Below, one piece after another: positions 7,424-20,091 of a stretch of DNA of 20,091 bases. Source of the DNA: a virus. Lineage: Duplodnaviria > Heunggongvirae > Uroviricota > Caudoviricetes. The first letter of the stretch is position 1; each line of letters begins with the position of its first letter. The translations under genes were made by a program, and so were the position numbers. The notes under the pieces were generated by a model. It was not told where the DNA came from and made no database searches. It was given only the letters and a program-made list of their open reading frames with translations. The DNA lies in the IMG/VR virus record IMGVR_UViG_2693429524_000017, positions 1 to 20,091 of that record. The stretch is one strand, 5' to 3'.

Positions 7424-8842
7424 ATGCCGATTCAGCAACTTCCGCTTATGAAAGGTGTCGGCAAAGACTTTCGAAACGCCGACTATATCGACTATCTGCC
7501 AGTGAATATGTTGGCTACACCCAAAGAAATCCTGAACAGCAGCGGATATCTTCGCTCATTCCCGGGCATTGCCAAACGTTCTGATGTGAACGGAGTATCG
7601 CGAGGCGTCGAGTACAACATGGCGCAGAATGCTGTTTATCGCGTGTGTGGTGGCAAGCTGTACAAAGGAGAAAGTGAAGTCGGTGACGTCGCCGGAAGTG
7701 GTCGTGTATCAATGGCGCATGGTCGGACATCACAGGCGGTAGGTGTTAATGGTCAACTGGTCGAGTATCGCTATGATGGCACTGTTAAAACCGTCTCAAA
7801 CTGGCCTACAGACAGCGGTTTTACGCAGTATGAGTTAGGTTCAGTTCGCGACATTACGCGCTTACGTGGGCGTTATGCGTGGTCAAAAGACGGTACTGAT
7901 TCATGGTTTATCACTGACCTTGAAGACGAATCGCACCCTGACCGCTACAGCGCACAATATCGTGCAGAATCGCAGCCTGACGGCATCATCGGCATAGGTA
8001 CATGGCGAGACTTTATCGTCTGCTTTGGTTCATCGACAATTGAATATTTCTCCCTGACTGGTGCAACCACCGTTGGTGCCGCTTTGTATGTCGCACAGCC
8101 ATCGCTGATGGTGCAGAAAGGTATTGCCGGGACTTACTGCAAAACGCCATTCGCTGATTCTTATGCGTTCATCAGCAATCCGGCAACAGGTGCGCCGTCT
8201 GTATACATCATCGGCTCCGGTCAGGTATCACCAATCGCCAGCGCGAGCATTGAGAAAATCCTCCGCTCCTACACTGCTGATGAACTGGCTGATGGTGTGA
8301 TGGAATCGCTGCGGTTTGATGCTCATGAGTTGCTGATTATCCACCTTCCTCGCCATGCTCTCGTGTACGACGCATCTTCAAGCGCAAATGGTCCGCAATG
8401 GTGTGTGCTGAAAACAGGCCTGTATGACGATGTGTACCGCGCTATCGACTTCATTTACGAAGGCAATCAGATAACGTGCGGCGATAAGCTGGAATCCGTG
8501 ACCGGGAAACTGCAGTTCGATATCAGCAGCCAGTATGGTCTTCAACAGGAACACCTGCTGTTTACTCCACTCTTCAAAGCAGATAACGCCAGATGCTTTG
8601 ATCTGGAGGTGGAATCATCGACGGGTGTTGCGCAGTACGCCGACCGCCTTTTTCTCTCTGCAACCACTGACGGCATCAATTACGGTCGTGAGCAGATGAT
8701 TGAGCAGAATGAACCGTTCGTTTACGACAAACGCGTTTTGTGGAAGAAAGTAGGGCGCATCAGGAAAAACATTGGTTTCAAATTGCGCGTTATCACGAAG
8801 TCACCTGTCACTCTGTCAGGCTGCCAGATAAGGATTGAGTAA
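7424..8842 (+). CDS. Head completion / tail hub protein (P22 gp10-like), 472 aa
   Basis: Same length as P22 gp10 as I recall it; GAGGTGA RBS; stop overlaps the next ATG (TAATG). Confidence 0.85.
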
Positions 8843-9690
8843 TGGCTGATTCGAATCTCAATACACCTGTTATTGTTCAGGCTACACGGCTCGACACATC
8901 AGTCCTTCCACGCAATATCTTCTCGCAGTCGTATCTGCTTTACGTTATCGCACAGGGCACTGATGTTGGTAACGTGGCTAACAAGGCCAACGAGGCCGGA
9001 CAGGGCGCTTATGATGCACAGGTTAGGAACGATGAGCAGGATGTGATTCTCGCTGACCATGAGCAGCGAATTTCTGCTGCGGAAGCAACGCTTGTTAATC
9101 ATGAGGAGCGAATCAGCCAGGCAGAATCAACTCTTCAGGAACATGAAACACGAATAGCTCAGAATGAAAGCGATATTGCGTCGCTTGATACCAGAGTTCA
9201 GTCGCTCGAATCGCAGGTTTCAGACCATGAAACGCGCATCGATGCTCTGGAGTATGCCACTACTCGCAAGAAGTCAGAGGTTGTTTACTCTGGCGTATCT
9301 GTAACCATCCCGACAGCGCCGACCAACCTTGTTAGCCTGCTGAAAACGCTCACGCCGTCATCCGGCACGTTGGCACCATTCTTCGACACCGTTAACAACA
9401 AGATGGTTGTGTTCAACGAGAACAAAACCTTGTTCTTCAAGCTGTCGATCGTCGGGACGTGGCCCAGCGGAACCGCCAACAGGTCAATGCAGCTAACCTT
9501 TTCCGGCTCTGTTCCTGACACACTGGTAAGCAGTCGCAACTCGGCGACAACAACCGACAACATCCTGTTAGCTACGTTCTTCAGCGTGGATAAAGACGGC
9601 TTTCTTGCCACAAATGGCAGTACGTTAACCATTCAGTCGAATGGTGCGGCGTTTACTGCCACAACCATCAAGATAATCGCGGAGCAGTGA
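8842..9690 (+). CDS. Tail needle (P22 gp26-like) with a C-terminal knob domain, 282 aa
   Basis: N-terminus matches the gp26 type. The centre has heptad-type repeats (HEQRIS, HEERIS, HETRIA, HETRID) typical of the trimeric coiled coil. The C-terminal ~140 aa is a Ser/Thr/Asn-rich extension, as in Sf6/HK620-type knobbed needles, which P22 lacks. Confidence 0.85.
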
Positions 9691-10145
9691 TGATTACATT
9701 CAAACCAACGCGAAACATCGACCTGATAGAAGCAGTCGGAAATCACCCTGACATTATCGCCGGGAGCAACAACGGTGATGGATACTACTACAAACCTGAA
9801 TGCCGTTACTTTGAGGTGAACGTGCACGGTCAGTTTGGCGGCATTGTTTACTATCAGGAGATTCAGCCGCTGACATTCGATTGCCACGCCATGTACCTGC
9901 CAGAGATTCGCGGCTTCAGCAAGGAAATCGGGCTGGAGTTCTGGCGATACATTCTGACTAACACCACTGTTCAGTGTGTCACATCGTTCGCTGCACGCAA
10001 ATTCCGCCACGGGCAGATGTACTGCGCAATGATTGGCCTTAATCGTGTAGGAACCATCAAGAAATACTTCAAAGGCGTGGATGACGTGACGTTTTACAGC
10101 GCAACACGCGAAGAACTAATCGACTTCCTGAATCACGGGAGATAG
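9690..10145 (+). CDS. gp14-like virion assembly / ejection-associated protein, about 151 aa
   Basis: Conserved position between needle and gp7; ATG at 9690 overlaps the needle TGA (track starts at a GTG at 9687). Confidence 0.7.
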   Translation: MITFKPTRNIDLIEAVGNHPDIIAGSNNGDGYYYKPECRYFEVNVHGQFGGIVYYQEIQPLTFDCHAMYLPEIRGFSKEIGLEFWRYILTNTTVQCVTSFAARKFRHGQMYCAMIGLNRVGTIKKYFKGVDDVTFYSATREELIDFLNHGR

Positions 10146-10846: not shown

Positions 10847-12253
10847 ATGGCTACTTGGCAAGGAACAAACGGCGGATTGTTGGCTGGTATCGGCGGCGTC
10901 AACTCAAACGCTCCGAGCGTAAATGACATCGGCAATACGCTTCAGCTTATCAGGCAGAACAATGATATTGAGCGTTCAGGCGCTAACAATGTTGGGCTGA
11001 CTGCTTTGCAAGGCCTTTCAGGTATTGCGGGGGTGTTTCAGCAGGAAAAGCAGGCTCAGCGGCAGAAAGAATTTCAGCAGGCATACGCTAATGCTTATGC
11101 GTCTGGTGATCGCGGTGCTTTGCGTCAGTTGGCTACTCAATATCCAGACCAGATTGAATCCGTTCGTAAAGGCATGGGATTCATTGATGAAGACCAGCGT
11201 AATTCTATCGGCACATTAGCGGCTGGCGCACGCCTTGCGTCATCGTCTCCAGAAGCAATGCAATCATGGCTGCAAAACAACGCCAAGGAACTGACTCGCG
11301 TCGGTGTTGACCCTAACAGCGTTGCTCAGATGTATCAGCAAAACCCTTCAGGATTTGGTGAGTTTGTTGATCACCTTGGGATGGCTGCTCTCGGTCCGAT
11401 TGATTACTTCAATGTTCAGGACAAGATGGCTGGTCGTGAAATTGACCGAGGCAGGCTGGCAGAGACAATCCGCAGCAATCAGGCTGGTGAAGCACTTCAG
11501 GCGAGAGGGCAAAACCTTTCCTATCAGTCAGCAATGACTGGGCACAATATCGCAGCACAACGCTTGGCTCTGGATCAGCAAGAGTTCGGGTTTAAGATGC
11601 AGCAAGCGCAGGAAAAGGCTCAGCAGTTGATTAGTGAAGCACCTAAGCTGTCAGTAAACATGGAAAAAGCCATCGAGACGGCTGTAAACAATGCCACAGC
11701 ATCATCAAACTCAGCCAATTCTATGAGTGCGCTTGCTCAACAGTTCAGAGCAGAAAAACCAACGACAGGTTTGTTCGGTAACGCACAGAACATGTTCGCA
11801 AAACTTACCGGAAGCGATACGACATTGCGTGATTTGCGCATTCGCCAAAATGCCCTTGTTAACAGTCAGGTTCTTAAATTCCTACCTCCCGGCCCCGCAA
11901 CGGATAAAGACGTTGAGATCGTTCGTCAGGGTGCACCAACTGACATGGATAACCCTGAGACGGTCGCAAGATGGCTTGATGCTATGGCAAACCTTGAGCG
12001 ACGAAACGCGCAGTTTAATGAGTTTAAAGCCGAGTGGATGAGCGCGAATGGCAACCCTGGACAATCGCGTAATGGCGGTCAGATATTGGGGTTGGATGTT
12101 AAAAAAGGTGAATCATTGGGGAGTGCCGTTAAGCGGTATATGTCAATGAATACTGACGCAGCGCCAGCACAAGATTCGACACCTTCAGGTGAACCACGGA
12201 ATCAGGTTGGATCATATACCTCAAAATCAGGCATTCAATTTACGGTGGAATGA
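10847..12253 (+). CDS. Ejection protein gp20-like, 468 aa
   Basis: Position and size match P22 gp20 (recalled as ~471 aa); AAGGGG RBS. Confidence 0.8.
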   Translation: MATWQGTNGGLLAGIGGVNSNAPSVNDIGNTLQLIRQNNDIERSGANNVGLTALQGLSGIAGVFQQEKQAQRQKEFQQAYANAYASGDRGALRQLATQYPDQIESVRKGMGFIDEDQRNSIGTLAAGARLASSSPEAMQSWLQNNAKELTRVGVDPNSVAQMYQQNPSGFGEFVDHLGMAALGPIDYFNVQDKMAGREIDRGRLAETIRSNQAGEALQARGQNLSYQSAMTGHNIAAQRLALDQQEFGFKMQQAQEKAQQLISEAPKLSVNMEKAIETAVNNATASSNSANSMSALAQQFRAEKPTTGLFGNAQNMFAKLTGSDTTLRDLRIRQNALVNSQVLKFLPPGPATDKDVEIVRQGAPTDMDNPETVARWLDAMANLERRNAQFNEFKAEWMSANGNPGQSRNGGQILGLDVKKGESLGSAVKRYMSMNTDAAPAQDSTPSGEPRNQVGSYTSKSGIQFTVE

Positions 12254-14130
12254 TGAAAGTAACTGCAAACGGTAAGACATTTACCTTCCCTGATGGTACG
12301 AGCACGGAAGATATTGGCACCGCCATTGATGAGTATTTTGCTGGTCAGGCTGTTCAGCAACAAACAGTTAATCAGGCCAATAATGCACCAACACGGGAAG
12401 AACCATCATTAATGCAACAAGCTGGCGATTGGCTCACTGGTGGTCAAAGTGCAGGGCAAATTGCAGAACAGGCTGGTCGTGGTCTGGTAAACATACCATT
12501 CGACGTATTACAGGGCGGCGCAAGCCTGATTAATGCAATCAGCCAGGGGCTTGGTGGCCCCAAGGTTTTGGATGATGTTTATCGTCCAGTCGATCGACCG
12601 ACAGACCCTTACGCGCAAGCTGGTGAAACAATTGGTGGGTATCTCCTGCCAATTGGCACAGCGGCAAAAGCTGCTGGAGCGCCAGCAAAGCTCGCTGGAG
12701 ATATCGGTTCCGCAGGAAACATGATTGCAGGTTCTCTTGCTGATGCTGCAAATCAGGAGGGCGATTTCGCACAAAATGCAGCTAAAAATGCCGGAGTTAA
12801 CCTTGCCGCTCAGGGGGTTCTTTCCGCAGCAGCAAAGGGAATAGGGCGTGGAATTACTGCTGTTCGTGGCGAAATATCACCAGCAGATCAGCAATTGCTC
12901 AAGCGTGCCGCTGCGGCAGATGTACCAGTTATGACATCGGATGTAGTTTCTCCAAAAACAAAACTTGGCAATCAACTGCAGGGTTACTCAGAAGGAGTCA
13001 TAGCTGGTACTGGACCAATGAGAGCCGCACAGCAGGATGCCAGAACCAAGCTTGTTAATCGCTTCACCGAAAAATACGGCGACTACGATCCATCTGTAGT
13101 CGTTGATAGTCTAAAGTCAGGCGTTGCAAGGGAAAAATCGTTAGCCAAGTCAAAACTAAACAGCCTGTCAGGAAGAATGGTTGGAAAGCCAGTTGATACA
13201 AGTGGCGCCATAAGAGCTATCGACGGAGCAGTAAACGAACTTGGGAAACTTAAAGGTGTTTCTGACACCCAGACCATTTCTGCGCTTAATGATTATAAGA
13301 ATGCCATTCAGGAGATAACAAATGGAGATGATGCCTTTGAGTTACTTGATAAGCTGAGAACTCAGTTCCGCATTGACGTAAAAGGCGATCGTACAGTTCT
13401 GCCATCAATGTCGCAAACAATGGTCGACAGGGTCTATAACTCGCTAACCAATAGCCTTAGTAAATCTATAGCGAAAGGACTTAGCCCAAAAGATGCTTCA
13501 GCATGGAGAGCGGGAAAAGCTGATTATGCAAAAATGGCAACACATGCAACTCAAACGCGCCTTAAAAACGTTCTAAACAAAGGAGATTTAACTCCCGAGG
13601 CTGTAAATACCATTGTGTATGGACAATATGGGTCAGATATAGCTCGATTGTACGGGAAACTCGATCAAAAAGGTAAAGACATGCTAAGGGCGGCATATAT
13701 CAGCAAAATAGCTGACAAGGTAGGTGACAGCCCTCAGAAAATGATGACCGAGCTTGGCAAGCTGCAAAAACAAGCAAATGGTCAGGTGTTTAAAACTGTA
13801 TTTGGTGGGAAGAACGGAAAAGAGATAGAGGGGATGTTATCTATTCTCGATGCTACCAAAAGAGCATCTGAGGCTAATGTTGTGACGAAGACTGGCATGA
13901 CACTCGCGCCTTTGGTAAGGGTTATTGGTAACCTAAAAACCGGAGGCGCGCTATTGGCTGGGGAAACAGGGATTGGCCTTATGTCGAGGGTTTATGAAAG
14001 CCCTATGACCAGGAATGCGCTCTTACGTCTGGCAAACACCAAAGCAGGAACGCCAGCCTATGAAAGAGCATTAAGTAACGCTGCAAATGCCATCAGACCG
14101 CTGCTTGCCACTGAGGCAACACAGCAGTAA
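12250..14130 (+). CDS. Ejection protein gp16-like, 626 aa
   Basis: Start overlaps the gp20 stop (ATGATG); last gene of the conserved ejection-protein block; Ala/Gly-rich. Confidence 0.8.
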   Translation: MMKVTANGKTFTFPDGTSTEDIGTAIDEYFAGQAVQQQTVNQANNAPTREEPSLMQQAGDWLTGGQSAGQIAEQAGRGLVNIPFDVLQGGASLINAISQGLGGPKVLDDVYRPVDRPTDPYAQAGETIGGYLLPIGTAAKAAGAPAKLAGDIGSAGNMIAGSLADAANQEGDFAQNAAKNAGVNLAAQGVLSAAAKGIGRGITAVRGEISPADQQLLKRAAAADVPVMTSDVVSPKTKLGNQLQGYSEGVIAGTGPMRAAQQDARTKLVNRFTEKYGDYDPSVVVDSLKSGVAREKSLAKSKLNSLSGRMVGKPVDTSGAIRAIDGAVNELGKLKGVSDTQTISALNDYKNAIQEITNGDDAFELLDKLRTQFRIDVKGDRTVLPSMSQTMVDRVYNSLTNSLSKSIAKGLSPKDASAWRAGKADYAKMATHATQTRLKNVLNKGDLTPEAVNTIVYGQYGSDIARLYGKLDQKGKDMLRAAYISKIADKVGDSPQKMMTELGKLQKQANGQVFKTVFGGKNGKEIEGMLSILDATKRASEANVVTKTGMTLAPLVRVIGNLKTGGALLAGETGIGLMSRVYESPMTRNALLRLANTKAGTPAYERALSNAANAIRPLLATEATQQ

Positions 14131-14857: not shown

Positions 14858-14918
14858 ATTAAATGACATTTGACATAGTTGGATACTTAGCTGCGGCTAT
14901 CAAGATGGAGGTATGTTT

Positions 14919-15362
14919 ATGCTCACTTGTTTTGATGTCGCCGACTACTTCTTGGCGCATTGCGATGAAGAAAGTGGCGACATTATCTCTAACCTAAAAA
15001 TTCAGAAGTTGACGTATTATGCCCAAGGGTTTTCTCTGGTTCTTCTGGGTAAGCCGCTATTTAATGAGAAAATTGAAGCCTGGATGCATGGGCCAGTAGT
15101 TCCTGAATTGTATCGTAAATATAGGGACTGTGGTAACGGCGCTTTACCTGCGCCAGAAAACTTTGACGCTAAAAAATTCAGTGAAGATGAAATTGAATTG
15201 CTGGATGAGGTGTATAAAGTTTATGGTCAGTTTTCTGCCTGGAAACTGCGCAATATGACTCACGAAGAGCAGCCATGGAAAGATGCTTACATTGAGGGTG
15301 CGGTTAGCCAAGAAATCACGCTTGATTCTATGAAAGGTTTTTTCAAAACGTTAATTAACTGA
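14919..15362 (+). CDS. Panacea (DUF4065, COG3600 GepA/SocA-like) domain protein; putative antitoxin or immunity component, about 147 aa
   Basis: Translation contains NLKIQKLTYYAQGFSLVLLGKPLFNEKIEAWMHGPVVPELYRKY, which I recognise as the Panacea core pattern. GGAGG at 14907-14911 favours the ATG at 14919 over the track start at 14913. Stop is 5 nt before the next ORF. Confidence 0.6.
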   Translation: MLTCFDVADYFLAHCDEESGDIISNLKIQKLTYYAQGFSLVLLGKPLFNEKIEAWMHGPVVPELYRKYRDCGNGALPAPENFDAKKFSEDEIELLDEVYKVYGQFSAWKLRNMTHEEQPWKDAYIEGAVSQEITLDSMKGFFKTLIN

Positions 15363-15367
15363 CGTGT

Positions 15368-15790
15368 ATGTCTAGAGTTAAGGGAAGAATAAAACAGAGG
15401 GATAAAGAGAGCTCTGCTACTGTTGGCCTCTCTATCCATCACGAATCTCATGATGTAGACAAAAGTCCGCCTGTATTTTCTCTTAGATACCTACAAAAGG
15501 GGTATTGCCTAGATTGCTGCCAAAAGCATGAAAAGGCAGCATTTGCAGATAGGCTGTTCAGGTTAAGTCAGATGTCATGGGATGAGATACGAAAATCTGA
15601 TAAACACGGGCTTGGGACGGAAAAAATTGCCAGAAACGCGATAAAGGCTCCGATTCCTAAGCATGTTACTCAAGATGTGGATTTCATTGCGTTCAGATTT
15701 TGCTCTAAGGCACCTATGGTTGGTTATAAGATAGGAGCCACTTTTTATGTCTTATGGCTCGACAGGGAGTTCAAGCTATACAAGCACTAA
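15368..15790 (+). CDS. Hypothetical basic protein, 140 aa; candidate toxin/effector partner of the upstream Panacea-domain protein
   Basis: ATG 5 nt after the upstream stop with no independent Shine-Dalgarno, so probably translationally coupled. K/R/H-rich, with a C-terminal segment VDFIAFRFCSKAPMVGYKIGATFYVLWLDREFKLYKH. I cannot assign a family. Followed directly by an intrinsic terminator. Confidence 0.55.
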   Translation: MSRVKGRIKQRDKESSATVGLSIHHESHDVDKSPPVFSLRYLQKGYCLDCCQKHEKAAFADRLFRLSQMSWDEIRKSDKHGLGTEKIARNAIKAPIPKHVTQDVDFIAFRFCSKAPMVGYKIGATFYVLWLDREFKLYKH

Positions 15791-18294: not shown

Positions 18295-20091
18295 ATGACA
18301 GACATTACAGCCAATGTTGTAGTGAGCATGCCTTCGCAACTCTTCACTATGGCGCGTTCTTTTAAAGCGGTTGCCAATGGCAAAATTTATATTGGTAAAA
18401 TTGACACTGACCCTGTAAATCCTGAAAACCAGATTCAGGTTTATGTGGAGAACGAAGATGGTTCTCACGTCCCTGTTTCGCAACCAATCACCATTAACGC
18501 TGCTGGTTATCCGGTATATAACGGACAGATTGCCAAGTTCGTAACTGTACAGAATCACTCCATGGCTGTTTATGATGCATATGGTGCACAACAATTCTAT
18601 TATCCTGATCTACTTAAATATTCTCCAGACCAGTTAAGGGCTGAGCTTTCTGGCCCTGATGGCGCATCTCTGGTTGGTTATGGAGGCACAACCGTAAAGA
18701 TTGAGCTGGAGATCTTGAAAGCTACACATGATTCATTAATTGATAAAACAGGATTTAACGCTATTGGCCGCTTTCTCAATCTTTCAGAGCTTCGCTCCTG
18801 TGTTCCAGAGGAGGCAGGGCAGATTGTATACGTAGCATCAGCAGCTAGCACTACACATGCTGAAAACCACCTTGGTGGCGGCTTTTTCGAGTCTGTTGAT
18901 AACATTCAGGCGTGGGCTGATGATGGTGGAATTGTAATCAAGCCAGAAACTGGAACGATGGTATGGAGACGAATTAATTTTACCACTTACGACATGCAAT
19001 TTTGGGGGGTGAAACCTGACGGAGTCACAGATAACGCAACAGCTATAACTCTTGCAACTAACTTTGCCCGCTCAAACAAATGCATTCTAGAGGCTCCTGC
19101 TGGAAACATAAATACATCAAAAACAATCCCAATTTATGACAATATGGGAATTAGAGGACAGGGAAAGGCTGAAGCGACAGTTTTTTATAAAACAACAAAT
19201 GACAAAATAGATCTCACAAAAAATGGAGAAGTAATTCTTCAGGTGGATGCATTATGTGCTTTTATACCAAAACAATGGGATCTAACAGATAACTCAATGA
19301 GTTCATTTTGTGTTAACGGTAGAGTTGAAAACTGCATGTTTAGAAGGCTTGGCTTAACACAAGAAAATGTAGATTCTTATAGAAATTATTACGGACTGTT
19401 TTTAGGAAAATCAGCAGCACCAGTTATCAGACAGTCAATTTTTGAATGTGCTTATATCGGATGCTTCTCTTATGCGCCGTTCTCTGGCGTAATGGAAATG
19501 GTCGGTTTCCCACAATATCCAGGGAAAGGATATGCTGGAGTTTTATTTGAAGATTTTAGGGATGGTCAAATAAAAGTAATAGGCACTTCTATGGATATGC
19601 GCCTTGTTCAGGTTAACGGTTACCAGTTGTCATTTAGAATGTCAGGAATGCAATATACCACCATGACCAATTGTACTGCTGAAAACTGCACGCCAATGGA
19701 TGGGGAGTCAATTTGCTATGCATTTGATTTTGTAAATCCGTATTGCATTGTCATGAATACTTGTGCAACAGAATTTGTTAAGGGTGGGCAACTTCGTGTT
19801 AGCGTTCAGGGAAACCCATCATTCAGACCATCTATTATTGTCAATGGCTTTCTGCCAATTGATCAACAAAGCCCGGTAGTGCAAACACCTATAATAGATA
19901 TTGATAATGGTGGCGTAGTTGAAATGAGTGTCATATTAAATGGTGGAGATTGGGCTATAAATCCATCTGCTACAAATTTAGCCGTACCAAGAGCAAGCGG
20001 AAATGGGTTGAAAGCAAGGTTAATAGGTGTAAACGGGTCGCCTGTTTCGATCTGGAGCGTGTCTCCTGGCGCAGATGTGAAGGAGTTCTAA
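18295..20091 (+). CDS. Tailspike protein (P22 gp9-family N-terminal head-binding domain fused to a divergent receptor-binding domain), 598 aa
   Basis: N-terminus [50 protein letters not shown] matches the conserved P22/Sf6/HK620 particle-binding domain. The remainder is a different, AT-richer domain. GGAG RBS; the TAA is the last codon of the window. Confidence 0.85.

Follow-up and report, generated by a model that had tools for sequence, protein, structure and literature searches.

The window analyzed here, a stretch of 20,091 nucleotides from an IMG/VR virus record (IMGVR_UViG_2693429524_000017), corresponds to the late region of a genome of the P22-like group (Lederbergvirus), with its genes in the P22 order. 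It begins with the small and large terminase, portal, scaffold, coat, gp4-like (PF11650) and hub (PF11134) genes and the tail needle gene, continues with genes for gp14-like (PF11039), gp7-like (PF25688), gp20-like (PF16928) and gp16-like proteins, and ends with an immI-type Arc and antirepressor region followed by a tailspike gene with the P22 head-binding domain. The features of the needle gene and its immediate surroundings are the following.

7424-8842, + strand: tail hub gene (like P22 gp10 and Sf6 gp8), 472 aa; PF11134, E = 2e-299.
8842-9690, + strand: tail needle gene, homologous to gene 9 of Sf6 and gene 26 of P22; 282 aa, ATG start.
8842-9021 (aa 1-60), + strand: N-terminal domain, predicted from homology to P22 gp26 to bind and plug the tail hub.
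9028-9042, + strand: polar core motif N63-x-x-Q66-D67 (sequence RNDEQD) at heptad positions a, d and e.
9049-9261 (aa 70-140; taken as about aa 61-140 elsewhere in the text), + strand: coiled-coil shaft of about ten heptads with four HExRI units, from the heptad register and AlphaFold2.
9058 (aa 73), + strand: HEQRIS, from a motif scan.
9100 (aa 87), + strand: HEERIS, from the same scan.
9142 (aa 101), + strand: HETRIA, from the same scan.
9226 (aa 129), + strand: HETRID, from the same scan.
9262-9687 (aa 141-282), + strand: C-terminal knob domain, TNF-like jellyroll; PF16532, 3RWN, 4K6B.
9690-10145, + strand: gene like P22 gene 14 and Sf6 gene 10 (DUF2824); PF11039, E = 2e-51.
9285-9632 and 9633-10010, - strand: antisense ORFs of 115 and 125 aa within the knob and gene-14-like coding regions.

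The needle gene, at the coordinates named in the original prediction, lies between the gp10-like and gene-14-like genes, in the same order as in Sf6, HK620 and JEP4. The stop codon of the hub gene overlaps the start codon of the needle gene (TAATG), and the needle stop codon overlaps the ATG of the gene-14-like gene (TGATG); overlapping stop and start codons are the usual sign of translationally coupled late genes. A mechanical ORF list begins the gene-14-like ORF at GTG 9687; ATG 9690 is the likelier start, given the TGATG overlap and the agreement with the annotated starts of Sf6, HK620 and JEP4.

By tblastn and multiple alignment, the protein is 99% identical to the needles of Louie and N7 (both 282 aa), 98% identical to that of Sf6 (282 aa, six substitutions and no indels), 90% identical to that of JEP4 (317 aa, with 35 additional residues in the shaft), and 46% and 45% identical to those of HK620 and P22 (233 aa each). 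The exact protein is present in NCBI as WP_053877695.1, "tail needle knob protein," on 33 contigs, and belongs to a 90%-identity cluster of 3620 members. The same cluster holds 153-159-aa proteins named "DUF2824 family," which are the product of the downstream gene; their inclusion seems to be an artefact of the clustering or of the gene calls. In one NCBI record, CTX98919.1, the identical protein goes under the name "Tropomyosin [Escherichia coli]," a misannotation due to the coiled coil. The original prediction, that the gene encodes a tail needle in which a coiled-coil shaft carries a C-terminal knob of the Sf6 type, is borne out by PF16532, by identity to the structure 3RWN and by the heptad register, which all agree, and nothing counts against the identification. 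The gene at 8842-9690 may therefore be annotated, with near certainty, as coding for a tail needle of the Sf6 type, with a short shaft and a knob at its tip, in a temperate P22-like (Lederbergvirus) phage or prophage whose host is E. coli. The Sf6-type knobbed needle is already known and published (Bhardwaj 2011; Leavitt 2013).

A C-terminal domain homologous to aa 140-282 of Sf6 gp9 is present. In Pfam, aa 108-282 belong to family PF16532 (Sf6-type phage tail needle knob; E = 1.2e-117), with a score of 390 bits where the cut-off is 27; other Pfam matches of the protein all fall below their own cut-offs and are generic coiled-coil cross-matches. Residues 130-282 are identical to the crystal structure of the Sf6 gp9 knob (3RWN) at 152 of 153 positions, and residues 131-282 match the HS1 knob (4K6B) nearly as strongly (E = 3.9e-90). 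The AlphaFold2 single-sequence model of this domain is beta-rich and of low confidence (pLDDT about 40-66), and the fold is assigned from the 99% identity to solved structures rather than from the model. Ser, Thr and Asn together make up 34.8% of aa 142-282 versus 22.7% of aa 1-141, in keeping with the Ser/Thr/Asn-rich C-terminus of about 140 aa that had been noticed beforehand. In the knobs of Sf6 and HS1, L-glutamate is contacted by E146, K200, S248, D250, L255 and K277, and phosphate by the triad S231, R232 and N233 (PMC3741392). All nine contact residues are found at the same positions in the present needle, and ligand binding is predicted by analogy with those knobs. Of 5426 complete E. 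coli genomes, 819 (about 15%) contain the knob-coding DNA and 281 the full short shaft.

What the protein does can be proposed by analogy with published work on Sf6, HS1 and P22, the source of its likely trimeric state, plug function, glutamate binding and kinetic role; its probable position as a trimer at the tip of the virion tail follows the crystal structures known for Sf6 and HS1, together with the cryo-EM map of Sf6. Three needle chains would form a trimer with residues of about 61-140 as a trimeric coiled-coil shaft; the N-terminal quasi-sixfold helical hairpin, as in Sf6 (PMC9728967), would plug the hexameric tail hub so that DNA is retained; the shaft would hold the knob out past the tailspikes; and the knob (aa 141-282) would bind L-glutamate at the subunit interfaces. 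During infection, the needle would touch the outer membrane and be expelled, opening the channel, and its release would be followed by the exit of the gp7-like, gp20-like and gp16-like ejection proteins and of the DNA. In this scheme, the knob would set the rate of DNA delivery, not the host range.

The knob might instead be a receptor-binding domain that sets host range, analogous to the fibre knobs of adenovirus and PRD1, and knob-type needles of P22-like phages have been reported solely from Escherichia and Shigella hosts (PMC3741392). However, chimeric P22 that carries the HS1 knob infects Salmonella efficiently, needles tipped with foldon are functional, and the authors of those experiments considered a host-specificity role unlikely (Leavitt 2013, PMC3741392). 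Sf6 uses OmpA and OmpC as secondary receptors, and expansion of the host range maps to the tailspike. A receptor-binding knob is accordingly unlikely. Glutamate-site mutants and knob swaps in P22 chimeras gave normal plaque yields, whereas an altered needle tip slowed the release of K+, so that a role in the kinetics of DNA delivery was favoured, although a specific role of the knob in native hosts was left possible by the authors (PMC3741392). The earlier statement that knobs have been implicated in interaction with the host envelope thus needs qualifying, in that the published tests favour DNA-delivery kinetics and speak against host specificity (PMC3741392).

The shaft is a heptad-repeat helix that joins the N-terminal domain to the knob. 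With Ile77 fixed as position a, the heptad register is unbroken over aa 63-139: position a is occupied in turn by N, L, I, L, I, L, I, I, V, V and I, and position d by Q, H, A, H, A, H, N, L, L, H and L, while position e is nearly all Glu or Asp and position g alternates Arg with another residue. Of 5000 shuffled sequences, only 7 reached the hydrophobic power that aa 61-140 show at period 3.5. AlphaFold2, given the single sequence, models aa 42-141 as one uninterrupted helix (pLDDT 81-94 over aa 61-130), and the shaft aligns with the helical core of P22 gp26 as far as aa 137-144. The check on the coiled coil that the original prediction had proposed therefore gives one answer from the register, the 3.5-residue periodicity and the predicted helix. 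In the P22 gp26 structure 3C9I, an NxxQD motif coordinates Ca2+ (PMC13580157); the same motif is formed here by N63, Q66 and D67 at positions a, d and e, which is independent support for the register. By the same analogy, N63-Q66-D67 of the needle may bind an ion.

A repeat of HExRI(S/A/D) with a period of about 42 nucleotides had been claimed near 9050-9250; the repeat is real and has four copies. Consecutive HExRI units are separated by 42, 42 and 84 nucleotides, and the degenerate DNA pattern CAYGARNNNMGNAT has four matches in the window, every one of them at an HExRI site, where 0.49 would be expected; none of 100 shuffles reached that count. However, Tandem Repeats Finder did not call a 42-nucleotide array within 8700-9800, and outside the 14-nucleotide motif the units are just 65-82% alike over 17-23 nucleotides. 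The periodicity is therefore one of 14 residues (two heptads) at the level of the protein, not a DNA tandem repeat. In the register given above, the motif reads H(d)-E(e)-x(f)-R(g)-I(a), so that copies 14 residues apart are two heptads apart. The shaft of JEP4, about 30% diverged, contains six HExRI units (alignment read by eye).

The motif places the histidines H73, H87, H101 and H129 at core position d of the shaft. It is conceivable, yet very unlikely, that this ladder of histidines serves as a switch responding to pH or metal, by which the shaft is loosened or the needle set free at the cell envelope, or that the shaft gains or loses 42-nucleotide units and so matches its length to the tailspike or the O-antigen layer. 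The HExRI motif may simply be a stable heptad pair that specifies the trimer.

A plug domain homologous to aa 1-60 of P22 gp26 is present at the N-terminus and matches the P22 gp26 structures 2POH, 3C9I and 8EAP_B (aa 3-64). In the multiple alignment, the first 71 residues have 80% identity to P22 gp26 and 93%, 93% and 97% identity to the needles of HK620, JEP4 and Sf6. The N-terminus of the Sf6 needle is a quasi-sixfold plug of helical hairpins (PMC9728967), and the plug function of the present domain is carried over, by analogy, from published work on Sf6, HS1 and P22.

With its first 71 residues 80-93% identical to P22 and HK620 gp26 and its coiled coil alignable with P22 gp26 as far as aa 137-144, the protein could be taken for a needle of the P22/HK620 type that carries a P22-type C-terminal tip and lacks an extra globular domain. 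That reading has next to no chance of being correct: the gp26 proteins of P22 and HK620 are only 233 aa long, a forced alignment with them past aa 71 gives 23-28% identity with many gaps (55 gaps), nucleotide identity to HK620 and P22 over 9055-9690 drops to 33-47%, and the knob structures of Sf6 and HS1 cover aa 130-282. The C-terminus was aligned in search of a match to P22 gp26 that leaves no extra domain, the result that would have told against the original prediction, and no such match appeared. By phmmer, P22 gp26 matches nothing beyond aa 144, and the structures 2POH, 3C9I, 4LIN and 4ZKP cover only aa 1-137/144; a C-terminal stretch of about 90 aa homologous to P22 gp26 aa 140-233 was not found in the needle, and the DNA there is unalignable. 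The knob had been attributed to the needles of Sf6 and HK620 and denied to P22 gp26; this is right for Sf6 and for P22, and wrong for HK620, of which the gp26 of 233 aa ends in a P22-type tip. HK620 is listed under P22-type tip subtype A (Leavitt 2013, PMC3741392).

As a needle of the Sf6 type, the protein is best compared with Sf6 gp9 (PDB 3RWN; Bhardwaj et al. 2011), with which it shares the three-part layout, the knob, the ligand-contact residues, the short shaft and the position of its gene between homologues of gp8 (hub) and gene 10. It differs from Sf6 gp9 by T8V, V12I, S92R, E100D, A113S and A270S, and the head genes around it are of another type, the coat of Sf6 being unrelated in sequence to the coat here. 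The long-shaft needle of HS1 and JEP4 (PDB 4K6B; Leavitt et al. 2013) has a knob 99% identical and an N-terminal domain 93% identical to those of the present needle and keeps the two-heptad HExRI motif, and JEP4 has its head genes in common with the window, including a coat protein 98% identical; its shaft, however, is 35 aa (five heptads) longer and is identical at only 70% of amino acids and 65% of nucleotides. Shafts of 16 heptads in HS1 and 11 in Sf6 carry the same knob (PMC3741392). P22 and HK620 gp26 (2POH, 3C9I, 4LIN, 5BU5) resemble the needle in the plug domain, the NxxQD motif, the trimeric coiled-coil shaft, the gene position and the function, but are 233 aa long with an unrelated C-terminal tip and no knob; DNA homology to them stops near nucleotide 9050, and that to HK620 restarts at 9687. 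Homologues of the knob outside the P22-like phages, in T4-like phages, Mu-like Vibrio prophages and Aeromonas, have 37-63% identity (PMC3741392), and their glutamate-contact residues are conserved (Leavitt 2013, PMC3741392). By tblastn, Edwardsiella phages match the knob only, and full-length matches of 43-58% identity are found in Aeromonas, Shewanella and other E. coli phages. The outside homologues of the knob, including the TNF-like fibre knobs of PRD1 and adenovirus, differ in their N-terminal parts and virion context.

The nucleotide identities of successive segments were computed as sliding identity over a MAFFT alignment, in which values of 33-47% mean that the sequences are effectively unalignable. 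They are as follows, in percent.

Hub gene, 7424-8842: Sf6 94.4, Louie 94.6, N7 94.2, JEP4 94.2, HK620 93.6, P22 84.0.
Needle aa 1-71: Sf6 93.4, Louie 93.0, N7 94.8, JEP4 87.8, HK620 87.8, P22 72.3.
Shaft, 9055-9264: Sf6 95.2, Louie 99.5, N7 95.7, JEP4 64.8, HK620 47.3, P22 41.0.
Knob, 9265-9690: Sf6 97.7, Louie 96.9, N7 98.1, JEP4 96.5, HK620 43.8, P22 32.8.
Gene-14-like gene, 9687-10145: Sf6 96.1, Louie 46.0, N7 95.4, JEP4 95.0, HK620 96.3, P22 not in the record.

Mosaic breakpoints lie near nucleotides 9020-9050, near 9245 and at 9687. The coat protein encoded in the window is 98% identical to that of JEP4 and has no significant similarity to that of Sf6 (28% over 58 aa, E = 0.018). The coat and segment identities together indicate that a head module of the JEP4/CUS-3 type has been joined to an Sf6-type short shaft and the common knob. 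The mosaic ancestry suggested by the original prediction is thus supported by the JEP4-like coat, the Sf6-type shaft and the nucleotide identities segment by segment, and mosaicism of this kind is well documented. Sf6-type knobs were reported in 69 of 164 P22-like genomes (Leavitt et al. 2013, PMC3741392), differing among them by no more than 4.9%; among P22-like phages they occur only in those of Escherichia and Shigella, and the knob is probably a recent arrival in the group (PMC3741392).

That the protein is tropomyosin or some other coiled-coil protein with no relation to tail needles, as the label of CTX98919.1 and a Pfam Tropomyosin match at E = 1.5e-5 might suggest, or that the real gene is the antisense ORF 9285-9632, one of two antisense ORFs (115 and 125 aa) that are open here and remain open in relatives, can be dismissed, since the Tropomyosin match scores 25 bits against a cut-off of 38.6 and is a generic coiled-coil cross-match, the third codon positions of the antisense ORF coincide with those of the + frame so that its apparent conservation is uninformative either way, and the + frame matches a Pfam family and solved structures. 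Third codon positions of the + frame hold 22-27 of the 27-33 nucleotide differences from Sf6, Louie and N7, which identifies the + strand as the coding strand. In Sf6, Louie and N7 the antisense ORF 9285-9632 is likewise uninterrupted, and its product differs at few amino acids; it was rejected as a gene because its wobble positions are common with the + frame.

The nearest match to the window among complete genomes is a prophage of E. coli Z1323CEC0019, a chicken isolate, with 99.1% identity over 69% of the window. It is 100% identical from about 4800 to about 10600 and then diverges. From about 10650 its identity falls to 64-79%; no blastn match was reported from 11007 to 12397, after which matching resumes with 93% identity over 12397-12824. 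The divergence suggests that recombination took place about 1 kb downstream of the needle gene, with its breakpoint within the genes for the gp7-like and gp20-like ejection proteins. Two further features lie toward the end of the window.

14913-15790, + strand: a protein of 149 aa containing a SocA/Panacea antitoxin domain (PF13274, E = 2e-24) and, 5 nucleotides later, a protein of 140 aa.
18295-20091, + strand: tailspike gene, incomplete because the window ends within it; PF09008 (P22 head-binding domain), E = 6e-65.

The pair at 14913-15790 is placed between the gene-16-like ejection gene and the immI region, where sieA lies in P22. The 140-aa protein has no Pfam match and a weak PADLOC match to NsnC (E = 2e-7), and the pair may be a toxin-antitoxin or defence cassette. 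At the corresponding place, the closest E. coli prophage is annotated with a single hypothetical gene of 139 aa (locus 15086-15505). The body of the tailspike has only a weak pectate-lyase-like match, and homology to JEP4 stops at about 18307, which indicates that the receptor-binding body of the tailspike is another exchanged module.

The finding matters little beyond the correct annotation of the needle, the knob type having been structurally solved and genetically tested. The needle gene is a textbook case of sub-gene mosaicism in P22-like phages, with the plug, the shaft and the tip as three exchangeable modules.
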